Below, piece by piece: positions 875 to 56,062 of a stretch of 64,000 nt of DNA. The stretch lies in the IMG/VR virus record IMGVR_UViG_3300010885_055964, positions 1 through 64,000 of that record. The stretch is one strand, 5' to 3'. The position numbers and the translations under genes are program-made. Position 1 is the first letter of the stretch; every line of letters begins with the position of its first letter. The notes under the pieces are model-generated. The model was not told the origin of the DNA and did no database searches. It saw only the letters and a program-made list of their open reading frames with translations. Source of the DNA: a virus.

Positions 875-2626
875 TTATGTTTTGACCATTTGGTATTTGA
901 TTACTTGGATATGTGTGGTGTTGCACCAATGTAATTTGATGCCTGTACCTTCTATTACTCTAAAACGACCTACTGGTGGTCTACCATGTACCACTAAATC
1001 AAGCATCTTATCATTGTCGTACCCCACAGTCACGAAAGTGACTTTGTAGGTTTTTGACTGTCCGTTCTTTGTTTTTCTCTCCCCGGTATATTTTCTATAA
1101 GTAGCGACTAATCCTCTGAATGTAACATAGGTTTTGTCATCTTCTCCTATCCATTCCTTGTAGTAACAACCATCTAGAAACTGATCATCTATCCAATACC
1201 CATATTTGGCCAGATCTGACTTTTGCCCGGATGAAGCGTAAGTTTCAATTCCGACTATAGTGTCGTGTTCAATACGCCATGGCGGCTTGCCTAGAGTCAA
1301 CTTCAGACCGGATGCGACAGCATGCCTAAAGAATACCCATTTTTCATACATTGATTCGCAATGATTCAATGCTGTTAACCAGAATTGTTGTGGTTGTCGG
1401 GCTTTCTGATAAGCGAGTGCCCATACCAATTGGCCGTAAGAAATAGCATGTGATTTGCAAAAAGAATATAATGATAGCCTTTTAAAATTATCTCTGATTA
1501 ACTGCTTATCTTCTTCTGATGCTATTCTAGACATCAGCTCTTCTATTTGGTCTTCTTTGTTTTTGGCGAACGCTCTTCTGTAATTGTCTGCTTGTGCTTC
1601 TGTGCAGCCAGTCAATTGTCTGAATTTATCTATCGCATCATCATCGAAAACCAATACAGGATCATGTCCATTTAATATTTTGTCTTTATTACCTTCGGCT
1701 GCTGCTGCCGGTCTTAGAAGTGCTAATGCAAAGGCTACATCCGATCGGCTTTTAGGCTTCATGGACGTGAATATCTTCCTCATAGCAGGTGACTCTGCTA
1801 TGGTGATACCCATATTATCGCCTCTTGATAACAGGTCGCTGGTCGCTGTATCCTCTTCTGGATATTCTGACAGACCTCGTGAGCTTAAATCGTTGAGCTG
1901 GGCTAATGCTCTATTAGATAGTATGTCTATTTTGATCAAGTTCTTCTGTTCAACTTGGTCCTTATTTAGCTTGATCTGATTTCCTTTGAGTATCCATTTG
2001 GGTGGGATGCGTTGATCGAAGATTACTATACCACCACAATGAAGTGAAAATCCTCTGAATGTGTTGCATAGTCCAGCTGCTGTTTGTATTACTTGCTCTA
2101 ATGTTTCTCTACCCAATATCTCCTCTAGATCTGCGTATTTGCCAAACTTTTTCCTATAACCATGTCTTCTAATGGCCTCTCGGATCGCTGATTTTTCTTT
2201 GTAGTATAGATGATTAGATATTCTTGCAACTCTGTGTTTGCCAAAGTGGTCATATATTCTTTGGAAGACATCTTCTCTTCTATTGTATGGAAAGTCTATA
2301 TCGATGTCTGGATTATCGATTCTTTCTTCGTGCATAAATCTGGCTAACGATATGTTATATAGTATTGGATCTATATCTGTTATTCCCAATAGATAGCATA
2401 CTAGTGAGCTACCTGCTGAACCTCTTATCACGTGGGGTATGTCTTTAGTTAACTCGAGTATGGTTTTTACTTGGATGAATGTATCGGTAAAATTCCTATC
2501 TCTGATTAATCGTAGCTCTTGCCTGAGCCTTTGTTTATATGTCTCGTTTTTGGGTAATCGTCTGGTGAAGCTAGATATAATAGTCTGCAGCTTAGATATA
2601 TCGTCTTTCATACTTATCAAATACAC
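875..2626 (-). CDS. dnaE: DNA polymerase III alpha (family C), minimal form lacking the PHP domain
   Basis: Motifs IRGSAGSSLVCYLLGITDIDP, PDIDIDF, LHCGGIVI, IKIDIL, YSFCKSHAISY; no PHP motifs; 583 aa. Confidence 0.88.
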   Translation of the reverse strand: MYLISMKDDISKLQTIISSFTRRLPKNETYKQRLRQELRLIRDRNFTDTFIQVKTILELTKDIPHVIRGSAGSSLVCYLLGITDIDPILYNISLARFMHEERIDNPDIDIDFPYNRREDVFQRIYDHFGKHRVARISNHLYYKEKSAIREAIRRHGYRKKFGKYADLEEILGRETLEQVIQTAAGLCNTFRGFSLHCGGIVIFDQRIPPKWILKGNQIKLNKDQVEQKNLIKIDILSNRALAQLNDLSSRGLSEYPEEDTATSDLLSRGDNMGITIAESPAMRKIFTSMKPKSRSDVAFALALLRPAAAAEGNKDKILNGHDPVLVFDDDAIDKFRQLTGCTEAQADNYRRAFAKNKEDQIEELMSRIASEEDKQLIRDNFKRLSLYSFCKSHAISYGQLVWALAYQKARQPQQFWLTALNHCESMYEKWVFFRHAVASGLKLTLGKPPWRIEHDTIVGIETYASSGQKSDLAKYGYWIDDQFLDGCYYKEWIGEDDKTYVTFRGLVATYRKYTGERKTKNGQSKTYKVTFVTVGYDNDKMLDLVVHGRPPVGRFRVIEGTGIKLHWCNTTHIQVIKYQMVKT

Positions 2627-8321: not shown

Positions 8322-8609
8322 TTAATTGGCTACGGAGTAATCCGTATACATTTTCAGCATATTAGTCTTACCGCTTTGTCTATATGTTCTATATATGAAT
8401 CGGAATTTGTCTATGTCGAGACCAGACCCATCAGGTCTGCGTGGAAGGTAAAAATCATCATCTTGGTTTAGGGGTAAATACCTCTCATCGAACGATTGAT
8501 TTTCTGGTAAATGATGCACGACATAACGCGAACCGTCCTTCACAGCGGCCATGGCCAATTTAGACATCATTGCTATAAATGGTAAACTTAAGAAGGCTCG
8601 ACGTCGCAT
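8322..8609 (-). CDS. Hypothetical protein with twin-arginine-like leader
   Basis: MRRRAFLSLPFIAMMSKLAMA. Confidence 0.55.
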   Translation of the reverse strand: MRRRAFLSLPFIAMMSKLAMAAVKDGSRYVVHHLPENQSFDERYLPLNQDDDFYLPRRPDGSGLDIDKFRFIYRTYRQSGKTNMLKMYTDYSVAN

Positions 8610-9247
8610 GTTTGATTCCCTTTTGGTTTATCTAGACCTAGTTGATGCCTCATTGTTGTTATTACTGCTACTGCTCCGCAGTGCCCATTTACTCCCAAAT
8701 GATTTAGTAAGTCTTTGTACATTTTTTCATAATCACCTAGAGGAGCTTGGTGATCATGAGTCGCTTCAACTGTAGGTGTAGTCTTTTCTCGTGATTTAAC
8801 TATTACTTGAGCCTCGAGCAGCTTTATAGTATTGTTAAATGCGGTTTTAAGTAGTTCTTCTGGCAATGTTATATCAGATAATTTACCGTTTCTAGCGAGC
8901 CCAGCCATCACACAATCAGATATGTATTCTATAACGTCGACCAAATTAACGTCGGCGGGTACGCCATCTGGGTTGTTAAGGTGATGACGATGTATCTTAC
9001 GGTGGTTATCCCACCACTCAGTCTGCCTAAAGCCAGTCATATAATCTTGGTAAAACCAATCTATTAATGTGAGCTTATCATAATCATGTGAGCCAGCGGC
9101 TTCCATCATTTTACCAGAGAAAAAAGCAAGAGCTTTGGACACATCTCCAATATGAAGGCGGCTTGATTCTAACAGTGTTTCTTTTTTAGTGTTTAGATAA
9201 GGACAATAGCGCGTATCAGCAGTAGGCGATTTCTGTATTTCTATCAT
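8588..9247 (-). CDS. HD-superfamily phosphohydrolase-like protein (DUF5662-like)
   Basis: H..., HDYDK, HRHH..NP, DVIEYISDCVMA pattern; coupled to the dUTPase gene. Confidence 0.65.
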   Translation of the reverse strand: MIEIQKSPTADTRYCPYLNTKKETLLESSRLHIGDVSKALAFFSGKMMEAAGSHDYDKLTLIDWFYQDYMTGFRQTEWWDNHRKIHRHHLNNPDGVPADVNLVDVIEYISDCVMAGLARNGKLSDITLPEELLKTAFNNTIKLLEAQVIVKSREKTTPTVEATHDHQAPLGDYEKMYKDLLNHLGVNGHCGAVAVITTMRHQLGLDKPKGNQTCDVEPS

Positions 9248-10006: not shown

Positions 10007-10894
10007 TTATTTGATACAGTGACTACTTGTGATACGCGTCAGCTTTTGTAAAGCTTCTTTACGTTCCCTTGTATTCTCAATAAACTCTACCGCTTTTTCG
10101 ATGGTGTCGCATTCAGGGTTCGTATTATATATCTCCAGTGCTATCAGTTCTATGCGAGACAAAAACATTCCATATAACCGATAATCTTCAAACGCTTCCC
10201 ATACAAGAGGAAATAATGGCTTGACTATTTCTTCACCTATTATGGTTGCATATTGCCTGATTTCTAACTGTGCATGTGAGTCCATCCGTAATGCAAGGAA
10301 ATGCATCAGATTATGTAGGTCGATTTTCCAGTATGCCTCGGTATATGTTGATAATGGTAGGTCCTTTCTAGCTTGCTCTCTAGCCACACCGTTACTTATT
10401 CTATGCTCATAAACTTCTCTCGAGTAACTTAACAATTTAGCTTCTGCGTCTGATAATTGTGATCCGAGTGTCGTGTCTATATTGCCTTCCGAGCCTTGAT
10501 TGTTAGAAGACGATTGTATCCTCCAGCCATCTGGAGCAGTAGTAGAGGCTGAATCAATCGCATTCGAATAACGAGTACTATATTCATTGATATTAGCAGT
10601 TCTATGCCTGACCCATTGCCTCCAACAGTCCATAGGAACTCTAACAGCTAATTTAATTTCGGCCATTTCGAATGGAGTGCTATGCCGATGACGCATTAAG
10701 TATCTTATTAGATTTCTGTCATCATTAACATGCTTAGTACCATCTCCATAACTTACCCTAGCGGCCTGGACGATAGATGCGTCATTGCCCATCACATCCA
10801 CCAAACAAACGAATCCATCATCTAATACTTTAAACTTAACCCATTTGAGCTGGTCGAGTGACGTTTGTGCATTCGTTGCTGCTGCTTGATCCAC
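10007..10894 (-). CDS. thyX: FAD-dependent thymidylate synthase
   Basis: RHRHSTPFE, RQWVRHRTANINEYSTRYS, REQARKDLP; GTG start with AGGAG RBS. Confidence 0.95.
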   Translation of the reverse strand: MDQAAATNAQTSLDQLKWVKFKVLDDGFVCLVDVMGNDASIVQAARVSYGDGTKHVNDDRNLIRYLMRHRHSTPFEMAEIKLAVRVPMDCWRQWVRHRTANINEYSTRYSNAIDSASTTAPDGWRIQSSSNNQGSEGNIDTTLGSQLSDAEAKLLSYSREVYEHRISNGVAREQARKDLPLSTYTEAYWKIDLHNLMHFLALRMDSHAQLEIRQYATIIGEEIVKPLFPLVWEAFEDYRLYGMFLSRIELIALEIYNTNPECDTIEKAVEFIENTRERKEALQKLTRITSSHCIK

Positions 10895-11032
10895 TTTTTA
10901 TCTCCTTATTAGGATGCATAACATTTTTTTAATACTTCGTACTCTTCGATTGTGTCATAATCATCTGTCATAGCTCTTGATATGGGTTATTTCTGGACAT
11001 CAATGATTCGATTCTGCGTATTTAAATCAGAT

Positions 11033-11106
11033 GCTCCCGTAGCTCAGTTGGATAGAGCATGGGATTTCTAATCCCAGGGTCGTAGGTTCGAGTCCTACCG
11101 GGAGTA
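11033..11106 (+). tRNA. tRNA-Arg(UCU)
   Basis: Acceptor GCTCCCG/CGGGAGT, D-arm AGCTCAGTTGGATAGAGC, anticodon stem TGGGA/TCCCA with loop TT-TCT-AA, T-loop GGTTCGAGTCC; CCA not encoded. Confidence 0.95.
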
Positions 11107-11865
11107 TTTCGGTTTCTTATAAATACCAACTAATGACTCTACGTTCTTTAATTGTATATCGAACTGATGTACTGATGGCAGCCAACTCTGTTTGATGACG
11201 GTCAATTGTTTAGCCCAATCCAACAGCGTTTGTTTATACAGTTTGATAGGCCTTCTCTTGTCATAATATATGTCCGGTGTTAAATGCTTAGTACCTACCA
11301 TGCCATCGAACACTCTTTCCATAACAACAATGATACCACCAGGCTTAACTATCTTTATTAGATTATCCAACACCATCTCTGCATTAGACACATGCTCTAG
11401 ACAAGCTATACATAAAACAGTGTCGTATTCCTCACATATCATGACAGTCTCTGCAGAATCACATATCAATTCTGGTACATAATCTCCAAATCTTCCTGAG
11501 CGATATTCACATATTGGTAATTGGACTAGATTTTCCAACAATGGGTCTAATAGGGTTACATGTTCCATTTTCTTGGTAAAATGTGTTAACTGTGGACAAG
11601 GACCACAACCTATCTCGATAGTCTTACCCAAATTAGCTGGAATAGATCTATTAATCATCTTATAATCATAATATTGACAAGGGACTGACTCACTATTGGC
11701 GAACCAGTATTCTAACTCTTGTTTTTGAGCATCTCGCCATCTGCCAGGGTCTACTTTGAATATTCCTTTGGTTTTGTCCCAATACTTCTTATCATTCGAA
11801 GCACTCAATAGCTTTTTTGCTTCATCACCAGTCACTCTCTTGGTTACGTCAGTCCATGTAATCAT
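11095..11865 (-). CDS. Class I SAM-dependent methyltransferase
   Basis: IEIGCGP, YDTVLCIACLEHV, VKPGG. Confidence 0.8.
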   Translation of the reverse strand: MITWTDVTKRVTGDEAKKLLSASNDKKYWDKTKGIFKVDPGRWRDAQKQELEYWFANSESVPCQYYDYKMINRSIPANLGKTIEIGCGPCPQLTHFTKKMEHVTLLDPLLENLVQLPICEYRSGRFGDYVPELICDSAETVMICEEYDTVLCIACLEHVSNAEMVLDNLIKIVKPGGIIVVMERVFDGMVGTKHLTPDIYYDKRRPIKLYKQTLLDWAKQLTVIKQSWLPSVHQFDIQLKNVESLVGIYKKPKYSR

Positions 11866-19087: not shown

Positions 19088-19738
19088 TCATGCGTCGAAG
19101 TCTATAGTTATGAATCGACATTGATGCTGACTTAAATATTTACTGGCTTTGGGGCTAATATTTGGAGCAGCGATATACCCTTTGGCCCCCGGTATACATT
19201 CTAAATACTTTCTTAATTGCGTTACATCTTTGATAGACGCTTTTCTTCTTTTTACTTCTACTACGTGTTTACAATCAAATATGTCTACCCCTACCAAATC
19301 AACAGGTCCATAGTCGGTTGAATATTCACGTACGATAGTATGGCATTCTACATCAATAAAATATTGCCAATCATGCAATAGTTTTTCTACTAATTCTTTC
19401 TCTGTCTTATTAATGACAATCGAGTGATCAGACCATTCCTGCAGTGGTAATAATTGTAATATCTGATTTATGTTTACCAAGATCTTTTCACGCTTATTAT
19501 GTGACACTAATTGCCGACCATCAAAAGATAATCTAGATTTGGCCCCCTGATAATTTCTAGGCATTATCTTATCAGCTCCATGTATCTGCAATGAACCATC
19601 TGATTTATAAATCGTTAGAAAATTCCCATCACTTAATAAGCTACTAGCTCTACCATCGTATACGACATTACAGTTAGCATATAAAACGAAAGGCGTATTA
19701 GAAGCTACATAACTAGCTAAAACTGGTAACAATATCAT
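19088..19738 (-). CDS. nucS: NucS/EndoMS mismatch-specific endonuclease
   Basis: CNVVYDGRASS, KSDGSLQIH, PRNY N-domain; EKEL, REY.TDYGPVDL, VEVKRR, QLRKY nuclease motifs. Confidence 0.85.
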   Translation of the reverse strand: MILLPVLASYVASNTPFVLYANCNVVYDGRASSLLSDGNFLTIYKSDGSLQIHGADKIMPRNYQGAKSRLSFDGRQLVSHNKREKILVNINQILQLLPLQEWSDHSIVINKTEKELVEKLLHDWQYFIDVECHTIVREYSTDYGPVDLVGVDIFDCKHVVEVKRRKASIKDVTQLRKYLECIPGAKGYIAAPNISPKASKYLSQHQCRFITIDFDA

Positions 19739-20492: not shown

Positions 20493-23400
20493 TTACCAAC
20501 ATTGGTCTGGCTTAGTGGGATCACAATCCGGCCAGTTAAAGCGATTAGGCAAGATCTCGTTCGAGCGTATATGAGCAAGTATCCTATTGATACTACTCGT
20601 ATCGTTTATTTGTTTATGAATCAAGACTATTCTCATTTTTGTAGATGTTACCGTGCTAAAATCAGTCTCAAATATCTCAGCCCCATCCCGTAAATATGGA
20701 ACATATTCATTAGGTCTGAGTCCCTTAGACGCAGCTAATTGTTTTATCGTCCTGTTATTACTCGGGTCGAATAGATCTCTTTCGATCTTGATTCTCGTAG
20801 AAACATTTAGTATGTCTGGTATCGAATCTGGACCACAACAAGGCTCTAGTACAACTGGTGCATCTCCTGGTTCAGGGTGGCACAACAGGGGGCCATTATC
20901 ATAATCGTACTGTTGTCCGTTGTCACATGTCGGCAAAGGATATAAATATGGTGGTGATAATACTTTCTGTAATGCTGATGGGTCGCATATGAGAGTCTGC
21001 TCAAACACTGGTTCTACTATAGGCACGTTACCGAATTTGCTTTTAAACTCAATTAAATAACGATAATTCTGTTCCGATAGTGTCCTCGAACGCTCAGCGA
21101 TTGTTACGTCTCCTACGACGAAAGGAGGTAATGCGGTAATGATCTGCTGTAACGCTTCTGTCGACACGTTCCAAGGTATAGCAGGTGTCTGGTAGGTATT
21201 GGGCCCGACTGTTATCTTCAATGTGTAAGTGCCTCTATTGGCACGTGATACAGTTAATAATTGCTGCTCTCTGATACCGTTGCCCTGCTCTAATACTCGT
21301 ACAGTCGCGGTGCCGCCTTTAAGTTGGATGCCATTTAGCTGCGTCAACGGAATATTCTGTCTTACATATTGACCTTTGAACTCTAATTTATATGTATAAA
21401 TTCCGTTGTTGGCATCTCTAATGACGCTGGTTACCGATAAATCATTAGCTGTTAACCATGGTATTACCGTAACTATGGCTGTCTTCAATTGGGAAGGTGT
21501 CGCATTGAAAACTATACTATTGGTATTGTATGTGATTGGACTGGTAGCTGGACTGGTAAATGAAAGCTCATATGTACCATCTTTAGCATTTACTGTCACT
21601 AACTGCTGCTCATTCACGCCACCGCCCACACCTCCATTCCAGTCGGTAATAATCGTATAGTCAGGTTGTGGTTGTATTGTCATCTCACCCACGTTTTGCC
21701 TGCTATAGTCTCCGATGAATGATAACCTATATGGTCCTCGGTAGACAGCATCGCGGTCACTTATGTCCCCATCTACCCTTAGGTTACCTGAACCTATATT
21801 AGACATACCAGTCAATATGCTGGTTATCTGATTCAATGAGGCGTTGTGTTGTATGTTCTGACTGGTTATACCGCCAAATGTTACAGTAAAGTTGCTTGTG
21901 CTTTGATTTGTATTGGTGATAGTCTTCTGTTCATTAGTAGTGCCGTCTACGATTTTGCTCACGAATGAGTCTGAAGTGCCTAATAACCTTGACACATCTA
22001 CGATAATGGTGTTCTGGTTAATTGATCCTAATTCGTTAATGAATTCTATTACATAAGGGTCGAGTGCGGTACCCTCACCAGTCACTAATATATTATTACG
22101 ACCACCAGTGATAGATAGGCTACCGAATCTATTCCTTACGACGCTTGCAGTAGCACCGTACTCTATTAACACCGATTGTGTCTGGCCTGCATTTCTCCAC
22201 CTTAGTTCCCACTGACCACTAACTGCATTCGGTAGTGTGATAGATTGCTTCTCATTAACACTTAAACCATCTACTACCAAATCGATTTTCACATTAGCAC
22301 TACAAGGATCGTATACTACTCCTTTGCCGGTTATAGTTAATCGATTCAAAGACAGGTCACCGTTGCCTTCTGGCTTATTACAAGCAAATGTAGTAATATT
22401 GGCTGGGTTACCATTAATAACACCATTGCCAGACGCATCAGCCATTACTTGAGCAGGTGCATCATCGCTCTGTGTTGCATATTCCCAATAACCCGGATTG
22501 TCGCCATTATAGTAAGCTGCCTTGTACCATTCAGCTTCTGTAGGTAGATGGTACTTAGCATTTTCATTAGGTTCTACGACATTAGTGCCTTGCAAATGAT
22601 ATGCTCCGTCCTCTGTGGTGGTTAGATCCTGTTGACCACTGGGCTGGCCATTATGTAACCAATTGCAATATCTAGCGCTTGCAAACCAATCTACATAGAC
22701 TACAGGTTTGTCATCCATATCCTCAATTATATCATACGTATAGTTGCCCTGTGTCCCACTCCTGGTTATTCCTCCATAAGTTGGCGACCCAGCTGGTCGA
22801 CCCATTCTTATGTCATACAATCCATATGTGTCTGTCTTAGCGATACTATTTAGAAAGACTACATAATCACAGTTGGTTACAGCGAATTTGGCGATATGGT
22901 AAGGATATGATACGGCACCAACACCTGACGAGTCATTCTGATTGTCAATATCTTCTACGCTTACCATTTGTGGTAAGTCGAATGGATTTGGACTTTCGTA
23001 ACGACTGGCTATTCTAAATCCTATATTGTATTTCTTGTCTGATGCAGTTAGCGTATCTTTATATCTCTTAAATAATGATTCTGGCGTGCTTACATTAGCA
23101 CCTCTGACACTGCTTTTGTCTGTATCACTCGCTTGTGCGGTGATCCCAGCGTCATCGCTCATACCATTCTTTAAGCTGAAGCTAGTTAACGTAATCGATG
23201 CGCCTATATAATGGCTTATTCCATTGCCTGCACATATCTTTATATTACTGTCAATGTCGACTATTTTAGTCAATGGTAATGAACTGAATCTTTGTCCACC
23301 CCAAAACCATACTTGGCCATTTCTTATACCCAAAGAATGAGCATATCCAGCACTTATCTTAGTCCATCCGGTAGAACTCGCAGGAGGGCGTACTTGAGAA

Positions 23401-25571
23401 GGATAATTCCTGGATATCCAATTATTGATACCATCGGCATTAACACCATCGAGTTGCCCATAAATGTTATTTCCCCATGACCATGCATCACCTCCAATAC
23501 TTAATGCCAGGGAATGTTTTGTACCAGCAGCTACTTCGAACCAATTTTGTGTGCCGGATATTAATACTGGAGAATTTCTATCTACGTAAGTGTTATCGCC
23601 TAGTTGGCCAAGATAATTACTACCCCAAGACCACAATGTTTTATCGGACTTGATCGCCAATGTATGGCACGGAAAACCTTCCTGGGAAGCAGAATAATTA
23701 CCATAAGCATTACTAGCTGAAATAGATATCCAAATACTCGAGCTAATTTGAGTTGGCACTAACTTATCCGCATTAGTACCATCTCCTAATTGGCCGAAAC
23801 GATTATACCCCCAAGCCCATAATGTCCCGTCAGATCTGATAGCTAACGAATAACCATAACCAGCACTAATGCTTTTCCACGTGTCTGTGCCGATTTGGGA
23901 AGGTAAAGAACCATTGTTAGTAGTTCCGTTTCCTAATTGTCCGTATCTGTTATCTCCCCAAGTCCAAAGAGTACCATTCGATTTAATAGCTAAATAATGA
24001 TCTTCGCTAGATGATATGTTAGCCCAGTCCGTATCTGTCCCCACTTGCACAATAGGGTAAGATTTGGATAACCCAAGGTATCTCGACCCCCAAAGAGAAC
24101 CGTCACTTTTTATCCCAATATCCGACGAAATTTCTATCCATGTGTCTAGTCCTATCCGCACTGGATTCGGTCGTTCACTGCTGCTGGTTGGTGGTGGGAG
24201 ATCTATATCCGGCTGATACCCCCATCCCCATAGTGCACCGGATGGAATCGGCGGAGGTGGTGGTGGTGGTGGTGGTGGTGGTGGTGGTGGTGGTGGTGGT
24301 GGTGGTGGCGGCGGCGGCGGAGGTGGCGGCGGCGGCGGAGGTGGCGGCGGCGGAGGTGGCGATGTAACTGTAACCGAAGCTGTATTGCTTAATAATGTTA
24401 TATTGGCAGATTGTGTATCCATTACTATGAATACGCGTACTAACCACCCATCGACATATGATGGGACATTTATTAGGTCAAAGTAAAACCTGTTCGTATA
24501 CGGAGCTATAGTACCTGGAGTATCCCAAGTTATACCTCCATCTCTGCTAACAGTCCAATTGTATATTAGGGCGGAACCATTAGATGCATTCGCTGACACA
24601 GAAAAACTAGCAGTGCCACCAACCGATATTGTCTGATTCTGTGGCTGTTGCGTTATAATTATACTTGGAGCCTGAGGGGCAGTTACAGTCAGAACAGCGG
24701 AATTACTTATAACCTCGCTTACTACTCCCAGCGAGTTTACAACTGTAACAACTACGCGTATCAAGCTTATCCTGGGGTAAGGACGGATAAATGATGATGT
24801 CGGTAACGTTAATTTAATACCGAACTTACCTACATAACTTCCCAAACTTACCCAATTAATTCCATCATCATAGCTGATTTGCCAATTGGATGTTATCGTA
24901 ACATCATCAAATGTAGCGTTAGATATGTTGATAGCTATGCTAAAAGTAGCATCAAGACCAACAGTTACCGTCTGGTTCTGTGGCTGCTGAGAGATACTGA
25001 TAATGGTGGGAAGTGGCGGTGGAATAATAGTTTCACACCATTCGGATACGTTCCCATCCTGATCACATGTTCCATAATAACTAGGGCCACCGTTACTTCC
25101 CACAGTGGTCAAATTACCTATCGTAGAGCCATTCCATTGAGCAACACCATTGTAATTAGCGCTATTGCTTTGACTCACATTACCTAAATCTACTCGTACA
25201 GCTAATAGTGATTCACGACTAACAGCTATATCATTAATAATGGCCTTGCGTAATGTATCATTAGTTAGCTGTGAAGCGGTAATGTCGTAGTTATGTGACG
25301 CATATTTAATATCATATTTCACACCTGGTATGACGGATTGCTTGGCTACCAGCTCAGGCTCCGGGGATACAGTTCGAAGTAGCTGGTTAGTGCAATCAAC
25401 GCCGAAGGCCACTCGCCTCAGAGATGTCTGCACATCAGGAGTATTGTTCCTGATAGCTGGTGCTACCTCGCACTCTTTTGCCCACACTAACTCGACAAAT
25501 GTGGGTTGACCTATTTCGGTCGACCCATCGTTATCTGGTTTGGCTATACCATCAAAAGGATCTGTAGCCAC
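20493..25571 (-). CDS. Large virion/tail adhesin: permuted FGE-sulfatase (C-type lectin) domain, two Ig-like domains, poly-Pro, RCC1 repeats, repeated structural domains
   Basis: QQPQNQTV Ig starts; GTLWxWGxNxxGQLG RCC1 repeats; PVVYVDW and LPTEAEWYKAAY FGE motifs. Confidence 0.85.
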   Translation of the reverse strand: MATDPFDGIAKPDNDGSTEIGQPTFVELVWAKECEVAPAIRNNTPDVQTSLRRVAFGVDCTNQLLRTVSPEPELVAKQSVIPGVKYDIKYASHNYDITASQLTNDTLRKAIINDIAVSRESLLAVRVDLGNVSQSNSANYNGVAQWNGSTIGNLTTVGSNGGPSYYGTCDQDGNVSEWCETIIPPPLPTIISISQQPQNQTVTVGLDATFSIAINISNATFDDVTITSNWQISYDDGINWVSLGSYVGKFGIKLTLPTSSFIRPYPRISLIRVVVTVVNSLGVVSEVISNSAVLTVTAPQAPSIIITQQPQNQTISVGGTASFSVSANASNGSALIYNWTVSRDGGITWDTPGTIAPYTNRFYFDLINVPSYVDGWLVRVFIVMDTQSANITLLSNTASVTVTSPPPPPPPPPPPPPPPPPPPPPPPPPPPPPPPPPPPPPIPSGALWGWGYQPDIDLPPPTSSSERPNPVRIGLDTWIEISSDIGIKSDGSLWGSRYLGLSKSYPIVQVGTDTDWANISSSEDHYLAIKSNGTLWTWGDNRYGQLGNGTTNNGSLPSQIGTDTWKSISAGYGYSLAIRSDGTLWAWGYNRFGQLGDGTNADKLVPTQISSSIWISISASNAYGNYSASQEGFPCHTLAIKSDKTLWSWGSNYLGQLGDNTYVDRNSPVLISGTQNWFEVAAGTKHSLALSIGGDAWSWGNNIYGQLDGVNADGINNWISRNYPSQVRPPASSTGWTKISAGYAHSLGIRNGQVWFWGGQRFSSLPLTKIVDIDSNIKICAGNGISHYIGASITLTSFSLKNGMSDDAGITAQASDTDKSSVRGANVSTPESLFKRYKDTLTASDKKYNIGFRIASRYESPNPFDLPQMVSVEDIDNQNDSSGVGAVSYPYHIAKFAVTNCDYVVFLNSIAKTDTYGLYDIRMGRPAGSPTYGGITRSGTQGNYTYDIIEDMDDKPVVYVDWFASARYCNWLHNGQPSGQQDLTTTEDGAYHLQGTNVVEPNENAKYHLPTEAEWYKAAYYNGDNPGYWEYATQSDDAPAQVMADASGNGVINGNPANITTFACNKPEGNGDLSLNRLTITGKGVVYDPCSANVKIDLVVDGLSVNEKQSITLPNAVSGQWELRWRNAGQTQSVLIEYGATASVVRNRFGSLSITGGRNNILVTGEGTALDPYVIEFINELGSINQNTIIVDVSRLLGTSDSFVSKIVDGTTNEQKTITNTNQSTSNFTVTFGGITSQNIQHNASLNQITSILTGMSNIGSGNLRVDGDISDRDAVYRGPYRLSFIGDYSRQNVGEMTIQPQPDYTIITDWNGGVGGGVNEQQLVTVNAKDGTYELSFTSPATSPITYNTNSIVFNATPSQLKTAIVTVIPWLTANDLSVTSVIRDANNGIYTYKLEFKGQYVRQNIPLTQLNGIQLKGGTATVRVLEQGNGIREQQLLTVSRANRGTYTLKITVGPNTYQTPAIPWNVSTEALQQIITALPPFVVGDVTIAERSRTLSEQNYRYLIEFKSKFGNVPIVEPVFEQTLICDPSALQKVLSPPYLYPLPTCDNGQQYDYDNGPLLCHPEPGDAPVVLEPCCGPDSIPDILNVSTRIKIERDLFDPSNNRTIKQLAASKGLRPNEYVPYLRDGAEIFETDFSTVTSTKMRIVLIHKQINDTSSINRILAHIRSNEILPNRFNWPDCDPTKPDQCW
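24249..24359 (-). repeat. Poly-proline tract (37 CCN codons) including a long (GGT)n run
   Basis: Direct reading of NGG triplets on the + strand. Confidence 0.95.
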
Positions 25572-26637: not shown

Positions 26638-27177
26638 CTATTTTTTGCCAGCTCGTGCTAACCATTTTTTTAACATGTTCAGTATTCTGGTACGTTCTTT
26701 TTCAGCAGCTAATCTCGTATCCATAAGATTAGATTGAGGCATCCATTCATCGTTATCGTTGCCGTAGTAGTATTCGCCTGTCTGATTATTACGAGATATA
26801 TGACAAATTCGAAATTGTTCTACCATCAAATCAGAAGTCAATAATGAAACTATGCCTATAAAGTCCATATGGTGCAATTTCGGCAGTTTTTGATGCTTGT
26901 CCCAGGCAGTTTTATAAGGACCTCTTGTATATAGTTCTTTGGCATGGCAATCGAACATCCATTGATATTCTGTAGGTATATCTTGCTCATCCATGATAGG
27001 AGCTTTAATATACCTTATAGCCACCCACCACGCTATGTCATCTATTTGATATCTACCTAATTCTAGTACAGATCTCACCTTACGATGATGATCTAGCCTA
27101 GAATGACGTTGTTGGTCGCCTGGCTTATGATATCGTCTGCTATTTTCTTGTTCGGACATTCTGCTATTACCACCCAA
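26638..27177 (-). CDS. Hypothetical protein
   Basis: 179-aa ORF; start uncertain. Confidence 0.55.
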   Translation of the reverse strand: MGGNSRMSEQENSRRYHKPGDQQRHSRLDHHRKVRSVLELGRYQIDDIAWWVAIRYIKAPIMDEQDIPTEYQWMFDCHAKELYTRGPYKTAWDKHQKLPKLHHMDFIGIVSLLTSDLMVEQFRICHISRNNQTGEYYYGNDNDEWMPQSNLMDTRLAAEKERTRILNMLKKWLARAGKK

Positions 27178-27327: not shown

Positions 27328-28203
27328 TTAAATTGTGACTCTAGATTTTCCTAAAACGCTGAGCAAACCTTCAACGGCGTAAGAGAAAGTATCTTCTTTG
27401 GTAGTAGCTGATCCGAATTTTCTACCGAATGATGGTTCAATAGCAAACCATCCTTTATATTTATTATCGACAGCATCATTGATCGTCATATCAATTCTCG
27501 AGTCACCGTGGCCCACTACTTTAAAACCCTGTCCTATCTTTAGGTCACGTACATCTATTATATGCGTATAATTCCTCAATAAAGGCCAATGTTTAATGAA
27601 CGGATTGAAGTTATGCTTGATTATCAAACCAGCTGCATCATATATCAAACCGATATTATTATCTTTAATCAGTTTAATCGTTTCCACTGCATCAAAAATC
27701 GTAGAATCACTAGTTATTTCATATAAGCATTGTATGCCATTTAACAAGCTGATCTCAGACACTCGGCGTATCCAAGCGTCAACCATAACCATATTCACAG
27801 AGTTGTTAAATTTATCCTTTTCCCCAACAAAAATCCTTAAATAATTGCATCTGTAATACTTACATATATTCATCGCATCGGTTATCTGCTGGTCTGTAAT
27901 AGTAGACAGACTTCTATAATCTATTTTTCCTAATGTAGATGCTATCATTATAGTTTGGATGCCATAATCAGATAGTATAGATTTCAATTTACCATGACCA
28001 GAATCAGACATGCTGCATACATTACCGGACCAAGCTTCTCTTAATATAGCGTGTTTAATATTGTGTTGCGTTAATGTCTTACATGCTGATAAAGGATCTT
28101 CGCCTGCTTCATCTAAATAAGCAGCTATGTTATTTTGCACTATACACCCATTTATCTCTAGGTTCATTCGCTGATTCCTCTCTTGGAGGTGAGAGCATAT
28201 CAT
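27328..28203 (-). CDS. Sugar-phosphate isomerase/epimerase-like TIM barrel (AP_endonuc_2 family)
   Basis: LYEI, IYDAAG, HIIDVRD, GHGD, YKGWFAIEP. Confidence 0.7.
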   Translation of the reverse strand: MICSHLQERNQRMNLEINGCIVQNNIAAYLDEAGEDPLSACKTLTQHNIKHAILREAWSGNVCSMSDSGHGKLKSILSDYGIQTIMIASTLGKIDYRSLSTITDQQITDAMNICKYYRCNYLRIFVGEKDKFNNSVNMVMVDAWIRRVSEISLLNGIQCLYEITSDSTIFDAVETIKLIKDNNIGLIYDAAGLIIKHNFNPFIKHWPLLRNYTHIIDVRDLKIGQGFKVVGHGDSRIDMTINDAVDNKYKGWFAIEPSFGRKFGSATTKEDTFSYAVEGLLSVLGKSRVTI

Positions 28204-28603
28204 CTATAATCTGATGAGCAGATGTAGCAGTAATCGTATATTGATATTTTATTTCATGCCTGACGATTCTAGTTAGTATACCAAATCGTGGCATTGGGAT
28301 CTTTAATGGTAGATTATTTGAAACTACTTCATCTTCGGCAGCAGCGTGGAACCACCATCTGAGTGCTTGAGCTGATGCATAACTATATAAGCCGCAGTTT
28401 ATCATTTGACCAGAGCTATCATAACAACCCGGATTAGGCACACCCTTATCACCGCGTGAAAATTCTAACTTAACCCATTTATCTCCGATCATATTACCAT
28501 TAACTAAAGTAGGCCCATGCGGAGAACGTGCCTCGACAGTATATCCTATTTTGGTGCCGGATCCATTACTTCGATCTGCTTTGTAATCATCTTCTAAATT
28601 CAT
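28130..28603 (-). CDS. Hypothetical protein coupled to purZ
   Basis: ATG overlaps the purZ stop (ATGA). Confidence 0.55.
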   Translation of the reverse strand: MNLEDDYKADRSNGSGTKIGYTVEARSPHGPTLVNGNMIGDKWVKLEFSRGDKGVPNPGCYDSSGQMINCGLYSYASAQALRWWFHAAAEDEVVSNNLPLKIPMPRFGILTRIVRHEIKYQYTITATSAHQIIDDMLSPPREESANEPRDKWVYSAK

Positions 28604-29877
28604 TGCTCGCTCCTAAACGCAGTGTCGCGAAAGCAAACATGATTGTTTTGCGGGCCGGTACCGACAATAGTAACAGGAATCTGTGCTACATCCTCGACTC
28701 GCTTAATGAACTGCTTCACCTTGGTCGGAAGTCCATCGAAATCATTTGTTCCATAGCATGACCAATCAATATAGTTTGCGAAGTTGAGTGCTATCTGAGT
28801 GGCACCATTAATCGTTACAGCGTCACGTAGCTGTTCATCCGAGAAGGTGAATACTCTACGTAATCTTTTGGTTACAGTCGTTAGTTCTTTGTCGGCCAAC
28901 GTTGGAGGTGCACCAGCTTGTTCAGCAACTTCTTTCCAACTGATTTCCTTCTGTCCTTCATAAACACCACCAGAGTGACCGACTACTACACCATCTTCAA
29001 CCACGTTACCAACTCGGATTGGGTATGGCCTGATGACCAAATACACATCTCCCATACGCTTGGCTGACAGACCCATATCAGCTAAGTTCTGTACAGCTGT
29101 GGTTCCTCTACTGGTGCACTGAGGGTAATGAGAACCGTGATTAATATCTAACGAAAACCCTTGTGATCCTTCATGCAGAATAGTAAAGCCATCACTCAAC
29201 AACATATCCAAAGACACAGCTATATTCCAGGGCCAAATGTAATTATTATATCCTCCAGCAACCACATACTTTGCTAATTCGGGGCAATCTCTAGCCAATA
29301 TCAGCCCGACCCGACGCATAACTTTATCTGCAAGAAACGCACCACATCCTTGCATCGTACTAGCTATATGCTTTGTACCATCAGTTGAGTTATTTTCTCT
29401 GATTCTTTGTTCATCAGTTATTACTCCTGCTCTTTCGTGAATCCAGATCTTGTTTTCAAGATTGCATTCCTGTATCTCTTGTAACAGCCTTTCAAGGTGA
29501 AATGCGGCTGTTGCGCCTATATAGATTAATGGTCTGTAAGGAATTGGGATGTTGTTATTCACAGCATTCACAGCTTCATCAACTGAATCACAAGGTATTG
29601 GATCAGTAGCGTTATGACTTCCCTCCCTCCACCCGGTCAATCTAGGCTTGACTACCCAAGGCTGAGCAGCCCATTTATTAATAGCCGCACACGATGGAAC
29701 TGCCTTAGCAACAAATGCATCACCTAGATTATTGACTGCGGTATGGCCGGCATTAGCCATGTTAGTGGTTGATATGATTTGTGGTTGATAGCGGTACGCC
29801 AAAGCAGTAGAAATCAAGCCTTTACCGCAAGAACCCCATTGTCCGTCTGTCACAACATTAAACTTTTGCTTCTGCAT
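28600..29877 (-). CDS. purZ: PurA-family synthetase with PurZ (2-amino-dAMP pathway) signatures
   Basis: GQWGSCGKG (Ser at PurA Asp13), NMANAGHT, EGSQGFSL, YPQCTSR, YPIRVG, ELTTVTKRLRRVFTFS, LNFANY. Confidence 0.82.
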   Translation of the reverse strand: MQKQKFNVVTDGQWGSCGKGLISTALAYRYQPQIISTTNMANAGHTAVNNLGDAFVAKAVPSCAAINKWAAQPWVVKPRLTGWREGSHNATDPIPCDSVDEAVNAVNNNIPIPYRPLIYIGATAAFHLERLLQEIQECNLENKIWIHERAGVITDEQRIRENNSTDGTKHIASTMQGCGAFLADKVMRRVGLILARDCPELAKYVVAGGYNNYIWPWNIAVSLDMLLSDGFTILHEGSQGFSLDINHGSHYPQCTSRGTTAVQNLADMGLSAKRMGDVYLVIRPYPIRVGNVVEDGVVVGHSGGVYEGQKEISWKEVAEQAGAPPTLADKELTTVTKRLRRVFTFSDEQLRDAVTINGATQIALNFANYIDWSCYGTNDFDGLPTKVKQFIKRVEDVAQIPVTIVGTGPQNNHVCFRDTAFRSEQ

Positions 29878-29933: not shown

Positions 29934-30371
29934 CTAAATACCAGATGACCTTAACAATTTGGACGAATCTACATCATATCCATCTTTTAGCCAATCTGAT
30001 ATGTGCTTCCGAAAATTTTTCCTGCCGACTATATTACTACTATCGTCTAATAGATCAATAGCGTCTGGCAACGATAATATTTTGATCATTATGTCCCTTA
30101 TACAACCATTTTCGTTTTTGATAATATGTTTAACAGCTACCATATTCTTGCTCTGCAATAGTCTTTTTATCTTCATAGCTAGAAGAATTCTCTCTAGATC
30201 CTTTACTTTTTCATCTATGTCTGTAGACAAAGACACTCGTTCCTGATTCAACCATTCATCTGTTTTGGTGATCAGGTCTAATTCATTCTTCAACTGTTTA
30301 GTCAATACATCTAAATCTTCTTTATACATGTCTGTCCACCCATTCGTTAGGCATCCATATCCTAATACCAT
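29934..30371 (-). CDS. Hypothetical coiled-coil protein
   Basis: 145-aa ORF. Confidence 0.55.
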   Translation of the reverse strand: MVLGYGCLTNGWTDMYKEDLDVLTKQLKNELDLITKTDEWLNQERVSLSTDIDEKVKDLERILLAMKIKRLLQSKNMVAVKHIIKNENGCIRDIMIKILSLPDAIDLLDDSSNIVGRKNFRKHISDWLKDGYDVDSSKLLRSSGI

Positions 30372-30648
30372 TCACTTCCAATCTAACATGCTTGTGTTTA
30401 ATACCGCAAACCAGTGCTATTTCTTGATAGTAAGGATGCTCCATATTGTTTATTATTACACTCTCGCCCATACGTAAATCTGATACAATAATATGTTGAC
30501 TTACGTCATCCGTTTCTGGCCTTACTATGCATAATTCGATCGACTTAAAGGGCCTGAGGTCTGTAATAGGCTTATTGCACACTGGACACATATCATCTTG
30601 AATATCTATCGTACTACTACAATTGGGGCATGATATATTATTCTTCAT
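30322..30648 (-). CDS. Zinc-ribbon plus SH3/KOW-like protein
   Basis: CPNC...CPVC; short beta-rich C-terminus. Confidence 0.55.
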   Translation of the reverse strand: MKNNISCPNCSSTIDIQDDMCPVCNKPITDLRPFKSIELCIVRPETDDVSQHIIVSDLRMGESVIINNMEHPYYQEIALVCGIKHKHVRLEVNGIRIWMPNEWVDRHV

Positions 30649-41892: not shown

Positions 41893-42432
41893 ATGGATTC
41901 TTACGTCACAGATAGAATCAGGTATAGAGCGAATGCAGAGGTAGTACGTCGTCTGTTGATTAAATACTTTATGGAAAAGGGATATAATGAGTCATTTGAT
42001 AGGCAATTATACCCATGTATAATACAGGATCTACCTATGGTTATACCAGTATTATCTTCTAAGGTAGAAATAATTCCTCATATGGAAAATTTAGATAATA
42101 TACAAGGCAAAGCTGTTCTAGGATGGAATCTATTTGTGCTCGGAAATCAGCGAATGTATCTAGGTGACACATATCACAACGACCTGCAAACATTAGCTAG
42201 ACAAATCAAATCTAAGACTTTTTTGATACCTGAGGGAGTTAATCCTAATGCTACAAGGTTATCGACACCTCGCCGCATTATTCATTTTATAATGCGGGCG
42301 TTACAAGGTCATGAGGGAGGGTACGTAGATTTAGCTGCTCCCACTCACACGAACACTTTCCGAATGGGTGCTAATTTCAACGGCTTGGGTATGCAACCTC
42401 AGTTTTATAACCGTAGCGGATATGGGACTTAA
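41893..42432 (+). CDS. Hypothetical protein
   Basis: 179 aa, AGGAG RBS. Confidence 0.65.
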   Translation: MDSYVTDRIRYRANAEVVRRLLIKYFMEKGYNESFDRQLYPCIIQDLPMVIPVLSSKVEIIPHMENLDNIQGKAVLGWNLFVLGNQRMYLGDTYHNDLQTLARQIKSKTFLIPEGVNPNATRLSTPRRIIHFIMRALQGHEGGYVDLAAPTHTNTFRMGANFNGLGMQPQFYNRSGYGT

Positions 42433-42436
42433 AATC

Positions 42437-42859
42437 ATGCACATTGGAAAAGTATATGTAGCAGGTATGTTAGGAAATAATCAAGAGATCAGAATGATCC
42501 AAGATATGTTGAGAGCCAATCAAATACTAATAACATATGATTGGACCACTCACGGTCGGGTAAATGATAGAAGCCAACTTACAGAGATAGCAAAGAAAGA
42601 ACAACAAGGCGTGTCCGATTGCGATGTATTCTTTGCTGTATTGCCAGGCGGTGGAGGTACCCATTGTGAGCTTGGTATGGCTATAACACTAAATAAGCAG
42701 ATTATATTATTAGAAACTGGTAATGTAGAGGAGAAATCTTTTTATAATTTGCCAAATATTCACAGAATCCAAAACGTTGGTCCGGGTTATGAGTCGATAT
42801 ATGACGCCGTACGGCAGACAGTACTATTATTAAACCGTATCAATCAAAACGATAATTAG
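42437..42859 (+). CDS. Nucleoside 2-deoxyribosyltransferase / DNPH1-like N-glycosidase
   Basis: KVYVAG, YDWT, D..GVSDCD, GGGTHCELGMA. Confidence 0.78.
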   Translation: MHIGKVYVAGMLGNNQEIRMIQDMLRANQILITYDWTTHGRVNDRSQLTEIAKKEQQGVSDCDVFFAVLPGGGGTHCELGMAITLNKQIILLETGNVEEKSFYNLPNIHRIQNVGPGYESIYDAVRQTVLLLNRINQNDN

Positions 42860-52923: not shown

Positions 52924-53253
52924 ATGGACATTATACACATCATATTATGTTTGCTAGTGTTATCACAAGTAATCGCGCAACTCATCACATTGGTACTACT
53001 ATACAAGATATATTACATTTTTGATAGATTTAGATTTCCCTGGGAAGAGATCAAGGCTATAACAAATGCTTGGAAAACCACAATACCCCCAAGCGATTTC
53101 TCGTCAAACAAGGATATTACGCCAACTACGGGAGCTAAAGCAGCTAGCACAGTTAAAGAACTCCCACCAGAAGCAATTGCCCCCAGTCTTAAAAGAATGC
53201 AAAGAACATCAGGCTTCGGTTCCGGTATTAGTGACAAGAACAGTGATACATAA
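52924..53253 (+). CDS. Single-pass membrane protein
   Basis: N-terminal hydrophobic helix. Confidence 0.55.
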   Translation: MDIIHIILCLLVLSQVIAQLITLVLLYKIYYIFDRFRFPWEEIKAITNAWKTTIPPSDFSSNKDITPTTGAKAASTVKELPPEAIAPSLKRMQRTSGFGSGISDKNSDT

Positions 53254-53425
53254 GTTTACTCAACAGGTGACCGTACGCAGAGAGATTAAAGTAATAATCA
53301 ATAGCGATCGTCCAAGACCATGCCAATTACCAAAAGATAGTGCGATACAGCCTGATATTGACCACGCGGTTGATGAGTTACAAGTATATAGGCTAGGTGA
53401 TGTCTTCAACGGCAGGAGAGTAGTT

Positions 53426-54613: not shown

Positions 54614-56062
54614 ATGGCATATGATCCCAAAGATTATAGTGGTTCTACGCAATTTGTACATTTGCACAATCACACTGTATTTTCTGCTCTGGATGGTGTA
54701 GCCACTCCAGAACAATACGCTAAATTATGCTCTGAGCGTGGGTATCCTGCTATGAGTGCTACTGAGCACGGGCATATGGCATCGGTACCCGACATGTACT
54801 TGGCGTTTAAAAAATATGGAATCAAGTATATTCCAGGATGTGAAATATATTATAATGACTGGGAACCGCATAGACAAACGCTGGAACAAAGCGGAACAAA
54901 GGTCAGATCTCCCGAATGGAGAAAAAATAATCCTGATATTTCTGCTAGGATATCTAGAAACAGACATTTAACTATATTATGTAAAAACGAAGTAGGATAC
55001 CATAATTTATTAAAACTTACTACTCAAGCATATGAGACTGGTTTATTCGGCATGGGTAGGACGCAGTATAACCGAATATGGTTTGAAAAGCTATGTGAGT
55101 ATAAAGAAGGTCTTATTATATTATCAGGCTGCTTAAATGGCCCAATTAGTCATGAACTTAGGCATCGCTTCCTTAAGGATAAAGAAGGCGTCAAGATTTT
55201 CGAACGAGATAAACAACAAGCTTTCAATGATGCTATAAAATATGTAAAGATGTTTAAAAAAGAATTTGGTGATGACTATTATATAGAATTACAGATGCCT
55301 GGTATTGAAGCCATTGATAAGTGGGGCGAAAAAACGGTAAGTGATGATGCTGTCTTCAAGTGGTCAATAGCTATAGCCGATAAATACAATATACCTGTCG
55401 TTTTGACCAATGATTGTCATTATTTAGATCGCAAAGACTTCGAATTGCAAAAGCTTATGATGGCTGTGGCTCAAGAAACAACTATGGATTCTCCCGATTT
55501 ATTTCATGTTAATAGTAGTGAGCAATTCGTACAATCTAGAGCTGAATTGTGGTCTAGATTTAAAAACAATAAATATAGCGAAGGTATAGACGATAGAATA
55601 TTTGAAGTGATGTGTGATAATACATTGAAAATAGCAGAAAAATGCGTAGCATTTGATGTAGACACGTCCCCTAAGATACCTGAAATAGATAATGCTGATG
55701 ATTCTATCAAGCAGATCGTAGCCAAACGCTTAAAGGAAGGTGGATACGATAAAATAACTAAGAGATATTTAATAGACGGAAAAGAAGTGACATACGTTGA
55801 GCAAGCTAAAATAGAATTAAATAGATTTATCGATAAGGGATATTCGAGTTATTTTTTAATAACTCAAGATCTTGTTAACTATGGTAGACAAAGAGGTTGG
55901 CCGTTTAGCCCAAGAGGCAGTGCTGGTGGTTCTTTGGTGTGTTTCTTGATGGGCATCCATACGTTGAATCCTATGTTGTGGGGTCTATCGTTTGATAGGT
56001 TTTTATCACCTAGTAGAGGTGGTTATATGTTAAACGTAGACATGCCAGATCCAATCAGTTGA
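54614..56062 (+). CDS. dnaE: Split DnaE, N-terminal part: PHP domain plus GS-motif palm segment
   Basis: HLHNHT, TEHG, GCEIY, SGCLNG, TNDCHY; RGSAGGSLVCFLMG..NP and FDRFLSPSR; ends DMPDPIS. Confidence 0.9.
   Translation: MAYDPKDYSGSTQFVHLHNHTVFSALDGVATPEQYAKLCSERGYPAMSATEHGHMASVPDMYLAFKKYGIKYIPGCEIYYNDWEPHRQTLEQSGTKVRSPEWRKNNPDISARISRNRHLTILCKNEVGYHNLLKLTTQAYETGLFGMGRTQYNRIWFEKLCEYKEGLIILSGCLNGPISHELRHRFLKDKEGVKIFERDKQQAFNDAIKYVKMFKKEFGDDYYIELQMPGIEAIDKWGEKTVSDDAVFKWSIAIADKYNIPVVLTNDCHYLDRKDFELQKLMMAVAQETTMDSPDLFHVNSSEQFVQSRAELWSRFKNNKYSEGIDDRIFEVMCDNTLKIAEKCVAFDVDTSPKIPEIDNADDSIKQIVAKRLKEGGYDKITKRYLIDGKEVTYVEQAKIELNRFIDKGYSSYFLITQDLVNYGRQRGWPFSPRGSAGGSLVCFLMGIHTLNPMLWGLSFDRFLSPSRGGYMLNVDMPDPIS

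Follow-up and report, generated by a model that had tools for sequence, protein, structure and literature searches.

The phages that have been characterized experimentally as carrying 2-aminoadenine (Z) genomes are, to our knowledge, all small siphoviruses or podoviruses, and those we know of encode either DatZ together with MazZ or DutZ together with DmtZ, usually with the family A DNA polymerase DpoZ. The present study concerns a 425-aa protein encoded in the first 64 kb (hereafter the window, i.e., the whole stretch of DNA that was analyzed) of the IMG/VR record IMGVR_UViG_3300010885_055964, which derives from an uncultured giant phage with a genome of approximately 360 kb and a contractile tail. 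This protein has the residues and the phylogenetic position of a PurZ-type synthetase, and we estimate a probability of roughly 0.6 that it is a functional enzyme of this type in a jumbo phage that controls its adenine pool in the style of PurZ0 phages and in the DNA of which Z takes the place of all or most of the adenine (A). Residues S14, F12, and T262 of PurZ form the pocket for dGMP's 2-amino group, while F295 and Y298 stack on ATP (bioRxiv 10.1101/2025.10.22.683976). The same preprint derived a set of discriminating residues from synthetases encoded on experimentally Z-enriched vs. unmodified contigs (bioRxiv 10.1101/2025.10.22.683976). In PurZ0 phages, the dUTPase (Dut)-like protein DutZ and the nucleoside deoxyribosyltransferase (NDT)-like protein DmtZ remove dATP and dAMP and supply dGMP to the synthetase (PMC12884076).

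The open reading frame (ORF) for the 425-aa protein matched the Pfam family PF00709 (Adenylsucc_synt) with an E-value (E) of 7.6e-33 and PHROG 1211, which is annotated as 2-aminooxy adenylosuccinate synthetase, with an E of 1.5e-57. Among solved structures, S-2L PurZ (7odx, E 1.4e-34) and phiVC8 PurZ (6fko, E 4.4e-34) were both matched; the best score in the PDB was obtained with the short archaeal PurA of Pyrococcus horikoshii (E 8e-38), and the matches to the PurZ0 structure 7vf6 (E 2e-17) and to E. coli PurA (E 5e-15) were weaker. Because of these Pfam, PHROG, and PDB values, we regard the ORF as real and its family assignment as far beyond chance.

A sequence-only reading of the window had claimed that the catalytic Asp in GDEGKG of PurA is replaced by Ser (GSCGKG), that the TKLD loop is replaced by LNFANY, and that YPIRVG and a further motif match PurZ of phiVC8 and S-2L. 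The quoted motifs were all present in the ORF, which contains GQWGSCGKG, YPIRVG, ELTTVTKRLRRVFTFS, and ALNFANY, and both replacements were seen in its alignment with PurA. In the P-loop GQWGSCGKG, the position of the catalytic Asp13 of PurA is occupied by Ser, which is invariant across the members of the clade. LNFANY (F366 and Y369) stands where PurA has LTKLD, with NFxxY representing the ATP-type base loop (F295 and Y298 in VpPurZ), and SRG and RRVFTFS take the places of SSN and RRTGWLD, respectively. Alignment to phiVC8 PurZ assigned S16, W14, T333, F366, Y369, W314, Y306, and P286 of the window protein to the PurZ positions; the equivalents of F12, S14, and T262 in the dGMP pocket of VpPurZ are W14 (aromatic, and Phe in some clade members), S16, and T333. 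Each of the five PurZ residues with an assigned mechanistic role is retained or conservatively exchanged, and the top-ranked discriminating residues W252 and Y244 (PurZ numbering) are also retained. In a side-by-side alignment, the protein showed the PurZ state at each diagnostic block (GS(C/T)GKG, TSR, RRVF(S/T)FS, and LNFxNY), and it contained none of the motif states of PurZ0 from Ghobes, Wayne, Hiyaa, and Goodman (GSEAKG, TS(S/N)D, RRVGxF(E/D), and L(T/S)(M/F)(L/A)DQ) or of E. coli PurA (GDEGKG, TSSN, RRTGWLD, and LTKLD). Across 11 clade members, 122 alignment columns were invariant.

When 1.84 billion cluster representatives were searched exhaustively with HMMER, 295 matches fell below 1e-30, and Ser was present in every recognizable P-loop among the best 150 of these 295. 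A profile scan of species genomes found no relative, which left neither a host clue nor an archaeal outgroup, so that the bootstrapped tree (IQ-TREE, LG+G4, 46 rows) was rooted on E. coli PurA alone. With this one long branch as the outgroup, PurZ0 branched off first (support of 100/100), and the window protein was placed within the PurZ side (99/97) instead of clustering with PurA. The phylogeny and the diagnostic residues thus agree on a PurZ-type synthetase, as the sequence-only reading had proposed, and not on PurA or PurZ0. The clade of the window protein (97/92) sits in a large uncharacterized PurZ subclade (98/100), which is separate from the phiVC8/PMBT28/Acinetobacter subclade (100/100). 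Thirteen viral contigs encode PurZ proteins with 49–59% identity to that in the window, and further searches enlarged the lineage to at least 19 contigs. The GenBank phage collection contained 200 records with a PurZ or PurZ0 homolog; among the matches listed (100 of the 200), genome sizes were between 38 and 83 kb, except for that of Flavobacterium phage MaF61, which was 168 kb. In full-text literature searches, no paper that connects Z or PurZ with jumbo phages came up.

Regarding the control of the adenine pool, two candidate helpers were found in the window (Table 1). The first, designated F9, belongs to the NDT superfamily; it matched PF05014 (E 1.6e-6) and PHROG 1817, and the profile of its family gave values of 3e-6 with the CMP N-glycosidase 4jen and of approximately 5e-5 with several NDTs. 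The triad of DmtZ from Gordonia phage Ghobes is Y6/N77/E103 (PMC12884076); F9 has the nucleophile Glu, a Tyr near its N-terminus, and a WT(L/T)HG motif in common with this enzyme, the middle triad position is variable, and the F9 profile reached Ghobes gp53 (DmtZ) with an E of only 0.35. The second is a divergent Dut paralog, which matched PF00692 (E 1.5e-13), was itself matched by Ghobes gp55, contains all of the canonical dUTPase motifs together with an internal insertion, and adjoins ThyX. Two Dut genes are present in at least three clade genomes, two of which are complete, and the Dut in the window is the ortholog of the divergent copy (39–45% identity, vs. 27–34% to the canonical copy). 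With its NDT-like and Dut-like genes, the helper logic resembles that of PurZ0 systems despite the PurZ-type synthetase.

In the pathway that we propose, PurZ would most likely convert dGMP, aspartate, and ATP to N6-succino-2-amino-2'-deoxyadenylate (dSMP), from which host PurB and host kinases would produce dZTP. The adenine pool would be controlled as in PurZ0 phages and not via DatZ and MazZ: the divergent Dut paralog would convert dATP and dGTP to dAMP and dGMP, the DmtZ-like NDT enzyme would cleave or trans-glycosylate dAMP, and two further products of the purZ region, a protein with the fold of deoxyribose-phosphate aldolase (DERA), designated F0, and a triosephosphate isomerase (TIM) barrel similar to sugar-phosphate isomerases, designated F3, would handle the released deoxyribose-5-phosphate. 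The net outcome would be DNA with Z in place of all or most of its A. We infer these substrates and helper roles as well as the occurrence of Z in virion DNA, which is plausible. A further-reaching idea, namely, that Z-genomes are a property of the whole lineage, are copied by a DnaE-type replicase, and depend on an undescribed route of dAMP destruction involving Dut, the DmtZ-like enzyme, and the two barrels with no DatZ, is offered tentatively, with odds that are well short of even.

Several observations weigh against the replacement of A by Z through this pathway. DatZ was not found by tblastn or phmmer searches with the phiVC8, PMBT28, and Barton proteins, the DatZ-type HD families PF01966 and PF13023 were absent from the record, and the YfbR-like family PF12917 was absent from 16 of the 16 clade contigs, including three complete genomes; these negative results leave room for a very divergent HD protein. 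MazG (PF03819) was also absent from the record, phmmer searches with the PMBT28 and Barton proteins were negative, and DUF550 (PF04447) was absent from all 16 contigs in a search that matched no control genome either. No phage PurB was detected and, thus, the host lyase would be needed; host PurB also serves the known Z phages. No full DpoZ was found, PolA is absent from this 178-kb fragment, and Z would have to be selected by a DNA polymerase III (Pol III) alpha. With its canonical motifs and ThyX as a neighbor, the Dut paralog may be an ordinary dUTPase, while F0, the model of which places Arg at the position of the Schiff-base Lys of DERA, may not be an aldolase. The conservation of the gene block around purZ could also stem from shared ancestry within one lineage, not from shared function. 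Of the earlier reading, the PurZ-type synthetase in a very large phage held; the canonical DatZ, MazZ, and full DpoZ were not detected.

Among the alternatives, the one that survives best, although we consider it fairly unlikely, is that the protein is a true PurZ and that the substitution of A is only partial, or that a dZ pool serves to poison host replication or to evade nucleotide-sensing defenses. The lack of a detectable DatZ or other strong dATP-exclusion enzyme is in line with this explanation, as is the replicase, which is an unspecialized-looking Pol III alpha. By its domain matches, the main replicase is a split Pol III alpha, the two DnaE pieces of which are approximately 1.2 kb apart with small ORFs in the gap. 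A very divergent PolA-like ORF of 390–470 aa was present in 14 of 16 relatives (for example, G008; L018:18932-20113, +), in which it matches the C-terminal polymerase part only (21–40 bits) with no exonuclease domain; it has a DWLSADF-like motif A and an HDS-like motif C. Since most relatives carry this ORF, the statement that there is no family A polymerase is valid solely for the sequenced part of the present genome.

Palindrome statistics also bear on the extent of substitution. Throughout the record, 6-mer palindromes consisting of G and C only were depleted, with a median observed/expected ratio (O/E) of 0.62 vs. 0.98 for those containing A/T, and the O/E of GCGC was 0.47 (z -8.3). A depletion of G/C-only sites that spares A/T-containing sites is what the protection of A:T pairs predicts, and this pattern is suggestive as a sign of Z-DNA. 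On the other hand, GAGCTC, an A-containing site, was seen 0 times vs. 17.8 expected, which counts against complete replacement; its avoidance hints at A-containing sites that have remained exposed, as partial substitution would have it. Partial substitution is in turn opposed by the finding that A/T-containing palindromes are not depleted overall and by the NDT-like and Dut-like genes, which could remove dATP and dAMP as in PurZ0 phages (PMC12884076).

The second alternative concerns the genes around purZ, which form a conserved block of families that we designate by F numbers. In all relatives, purZ lies in a single block with the order helicase, SbcC, F7, F8, F5, F6, F9, F0, (F13), F1, PurZ, F3, (F17), and F4, and 19 large viral contigs contain the core of the block (NDT-like, DERA-fold, F1, PurZ, TIM barrel, and F4). 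In the window, an inversion splits F0–F4 (26.6–31.3 kb, minus strand) from helicase–F9–F6 (38–51 kb, plus strand), and F9, which adjoins F0 in relatives, is thereby separated from it. F7 is about the size of DatZ and was rejected as a candidate for this enzyme because it has no HD signature. F0 was always beside purZ in viral contigs (17/17 loci) and nowhere else, and its family comprises at least 250 metagenome clusters, on contigs of up to 439 kb. At 13 of the 14 loci, F3 is conserved downstream of purZ; it matched PF01261 with an E of 1.9e-6, which is just under the Pfam cutoff, and 30 of its 30 best Atlas look-alikes belong to PF01261 (score of 0.96). F1 had no family match and no usable match in the Atlas search, while the fold search with F4 returned generic small beta-barrels only (Z-scores below 7) and its profile was at chance level against the PDB.

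The predicted model of F0 (predicted local distance difference test score (pLDDT) of 86.8; predicted template modeling score of 0.85) matched DERA in all of its top 50 or so PDB matches in Foldseek (E of approximately 1e-11; template modeling scores of 0.72–0.78). F0 and DERA/DeoC share the same TIM-barrel fold, WPKGN in F0 resembles FPHGN, and K181, the equivalent of K201 in E. coli DeoC, is invariant. In contrast, there was no match at the sequence level: family searches assigned F0 to no family, its profile found no match among PDB sequences, and no signal was seen when the F0 family was compared with E. coli DeoC in hhalign. In the model, the strand register pairs D102, K137, and K167 with E84, R118, and R148, respectively, in a region (strands 4–6) that hhalign and MAFFT did not reliably align. 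Since R148 stands at the position of K167, the Schiff-base Lys has apparently been lost, and canonical chemistry is doubtful.

The linkage of purZ to two sugar-phosphate-type barrels and to two function-unassigned proteins without a counterpart in known Z clusters may be taken to indicate a PurZ-derived enzyme with another substrate or product, acting in a new purine or sugar modification pathway. The subclade is uncharacterized and lies apart from every assayed PurZ, and glycosyl-, sulfo-, and methyltransferases are abundant in the record, both of which are compatible with such a pathway. Nevertheless, we regard this possibility as quite unlikely because all of the residues known to contact dGMP or ATP in PurZ are kept and because the NDT-like partner matches the known Z-pathway helper DmtZ. 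It is very improbable that the gene is an ordinary auxiliary metabolic gene of the PurA type, raising AMP synthesis from IMP and GTP during infection, since membership in PF00709 and the best PDB score with P. horikoshii PurA are outweighed by the Asp-to-Ser, TKLD-to-LNFANY, SSN-to-SRG, and RRTGWLD-to-RRVFTFS replacements and by the nesting of the protein among Ser-type sequences.

Table 1. Features of the window that are relevant to purZ, the adenine pool, and the replicase
Feature	Coordinates	Strand	Basis or distribution
purZ, PurZ-type 2-aminoadenylosuccinate (dSMP) synthetase, 425 aa	28600..29877	-	PF00709, PHROG 1211, PurZ structures, residues, tree
In-frame loop insertion in purZ, approximately 40 aa (residues 73-112), after AVPS	29542..29661	-	Found in this copy only
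F4, conserved protein whose core is a small Tudor/SH3-like beta-barrel	26638..27177	-	13/14 loci; model pLDDT 72.5
F3, xylose-isomerase-like TIM barrel, sugar-phosphate isomerase/epimerase family	27328..28203	-	PF01261, Atlas
157-aa ORF between purZ and F3	28130..28603	-	No family match; clusters with no relative
F1, small conserved protein	29934..30371	-	Immediately upstream of purZ in 14/14 loci
F13, small zinc-ribbon protein	30322..30648	-	Weak zinc-ribbon Pfam matches; 5/14 loci
F0, DERA-fold TIM barrel, 230 aa	30638..31330	-	Predicted model and Foldseek
F9, NDT superfamily, DmtZ-like candidate dNMP N-glycosidase/transferase	42368..42859	+	PF05014, PHROG 1817, profile, synteny
Divergent dUTPase-family paralog, candidate DutZ-like dNTP pyrophosphatase, 249 aa	9244..9993	-	PF00692, Ghobes gp55
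ThyX, flavin-dependent thymidylate synthase, beside the Dut paralog	10007..10894	-	PF02511, E 6.7e-50
Pol III alpha (DnaE), N-terminal piece: PHP and start of palm	54614..56062	+	PF02811, E 4e-35; PF07733 positions 4-99
Pol III alpha (DnaE), C-terminal piece: palm, fingers, helix-hairpin-helix	57290..59995	+	PF07733 positions 99-260, PF17657, PF14579, PHROG 405
Second DnaE-like ORF, palm and fingers only	875..2626	-	PF07733, E 3.7e-47; PF17657; PHROG 405

In addition to the features listed in Table 1, a giant 1692-aa protein (20493–25571, -) with RCC1-like repeats and immunoglobulin-like segments follows the purZ block in the window, with conserved counterparts of 1650–1980 aa in about half of the relatives. 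Translational coupling links the Dut paralog to a 219-aa ORF (8588–9247, -), which contains the HD-like sequence GSHDYDKL...HRKIHRHH, showed only a sub-threshold match to DUF5662, and may encode a divergent metal-dependent phosphohydrolase.

Insertions of two kinds were found in PurZ proteins. Among the 150 nearest PurZ cluster representatives, 13 are 710–1197 aa long (including P0001, P0003, P0006, P0014, and P0016) and carry insertions of 350–410 aa at two active-site motifs, NAGH/T and YPxC/TSR (the slash marks the insertion site), with one protein having both. These insertions follow the classic intein pattern and appear to be intein-like; inteins at active-site motifs are typical of indispensable genes. 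We found no published report of intein-like insertions in PurZ. The insertion in the window protein is of another kind. The sequence-only reading had placed an insertion of approximately 45 aa after AVPS, and an insertion is indeed present at this position, with a corrected length of approximately 40 aa. The alignment showed it in none of 13 clade relatives and in neither phiVC8 nor the Bacillus phage homolog, and its DNA has no repeats elsewhere, a GC content like that of the rest of the gene, and an ordinary composition. A mobile element or intein remnant was rejected because the insertion is repeat-free, far too short, and off both intein sites; it is most simply regarded as a lineage-specific surface loop. 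In a distant PurZ lineage (P0004, 49% identity; L076, a 40-kb Logan contig), an adenosine-deaminase-family gene is located directly upstream of purZ and may provide another route to remove adenine nucleotides. L076 also encodes nucleoside diphosphate kinase, a dNMP kinase, and full-length DnaE, and this gene set suggests several independent solutions for adenine removal.

The source record is 178,026 bp long and approximately 49% complete (CheckV), has a GC content of 41.2%, and uses the standard genetic code, with no need for alternative codes. Its three complete or near-complete relatives measure 355,825 (with terminal repeats), 408,349, and 354,091 bp. Therefore, the earlier description of an AT-rich large phage was correct in terms of size (complete relatives of 354–408 kb), while the genome is only moderately AT-rich. 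We regard the lineage as freshwater-type jumbo phages of 350–410 kb that have contractile tails, gp23-like capsids, and a replicase of the Pol III alpha type. Among the products encoded in the record are a tail sheath and a gp23-like major head protein, a terminase and a ribonucleotide reductase that are both long, and SbcCD, a helicase, NucS, ThyX, and numerous transferases. The closest capsid in GenBank was that of an uncultured 595-kb phage (37% identity), in which neither purZ nor an NDT-like gene was found, and 24 kb of the window had no megablast match among GenBank phages.

Among the other genes, the NucS/EndoMS mismatch endonuclease (19088–19738, -) has both domains, and tRNA-Arg(TCT) is located at 11032–11107 (+) between ThyX and a methyltransferase gene. 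A 480-aa protein encoded just upstream of DnaE (53066–54508, +) matched the Pfam family Volactin (PF25216, E 7e-43). Since Volactin is an actin homolog of archaea, the product looks like a phage-encoded actin-like protein. Beyond the window in the same record, the large terminase (1040 aa, L007:13593-16715) and ribonucleotide reductase (1147 aa, L007:5358-8801) are much longer than usual, with family matches in separated stretches, which suggests inteins or inserted domains.

If the replacement of A by Z in this lineage is true, base replacement would reach genomes of ten times the size, Pol III alpha of the bacterial type would be able to replicate Z-DNA, and adenine would be kept out of DNA in a new way. 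The PurZ subclade, the DmtZ-like enzyme, and the DERA-derived protein would then be candidate enzymes for Z-DNA production. New in the present study are the bootstrap support for a position on the PurZ side, the features that F9 has in common with DmtZ, the Schiff-base Lys that F0 has apparently lost, the second Dut paralog, the short PolA-like gene of relatives, and the intein sites in PurZ homologs.

In comparisons with the known PurZ Z-phage systems, the window protein has the same fold and the same motifs (GS(T/C)GKG, TSR, RRVF(S/T)FS, and LNFxNY) and falls on the PurZ side of the PurZ/PurZ0 split as they do, whereas its identity to these proteins is approximately 29–33% and it belongs to a separate, well-supported subclade. 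The known PurZ Z-phages have genomes of 38–67 kb, in contrast to 350–410 kb with a contractile tail in the present lineage. Unlike in those phages, purZ in the window has no DatZ or MazZ neighbors and no adjoining PolA DpoZ, and its product has a unique 40-aa loop.

The PurZ0 actinophages, such as phages Ghobes (Gordonia) and Wayne (Arthrobacter), resemble the present phage in having an NDT-superfamily protein and a Dut-family paralog, and neither system uses DatZ or MazZ. They differ in that the synthetase is of the PurZ type here, the NDT-like and Dut-like proteins are unfused and encoded approximately 20 kb or more from purZ, the similarity to DmtZ is marginal (E 0.35), there is no DUF5664 here, and the DERA-fold and TIM-barrel partners are additional.

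Flavobacterium phage MaF61 (PQ858689), a cultured 168-kb myovirus from lake water, encodes a PurZ-type gene of the same broad subclade, with the motifs GSSGKG, TSR, and MNFVNY; the paper describing this phage does not discuss the gene. The MaF61 protein is only 28% identical to that of the window and forms a long branch, its gene (L023:8983-10326) lies between the scaffold and terminase genes in the head/terminase region, and there is no F9-type NDT. The sequence-only reading had stated that a large AT-rich Z-genome would be new; a jumbo-phage PurZ was found, whereas the novelty is reduced by the PurZ-type gene of MaF61 already being in GenBank, by the lineage comprising at least 19 contigs, and by the GC content of 41%. 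Since MaF61 is cultured and falls within the wider PurZ subclade of the window protein, it makes the question of Z in large phage genomes directly testable.

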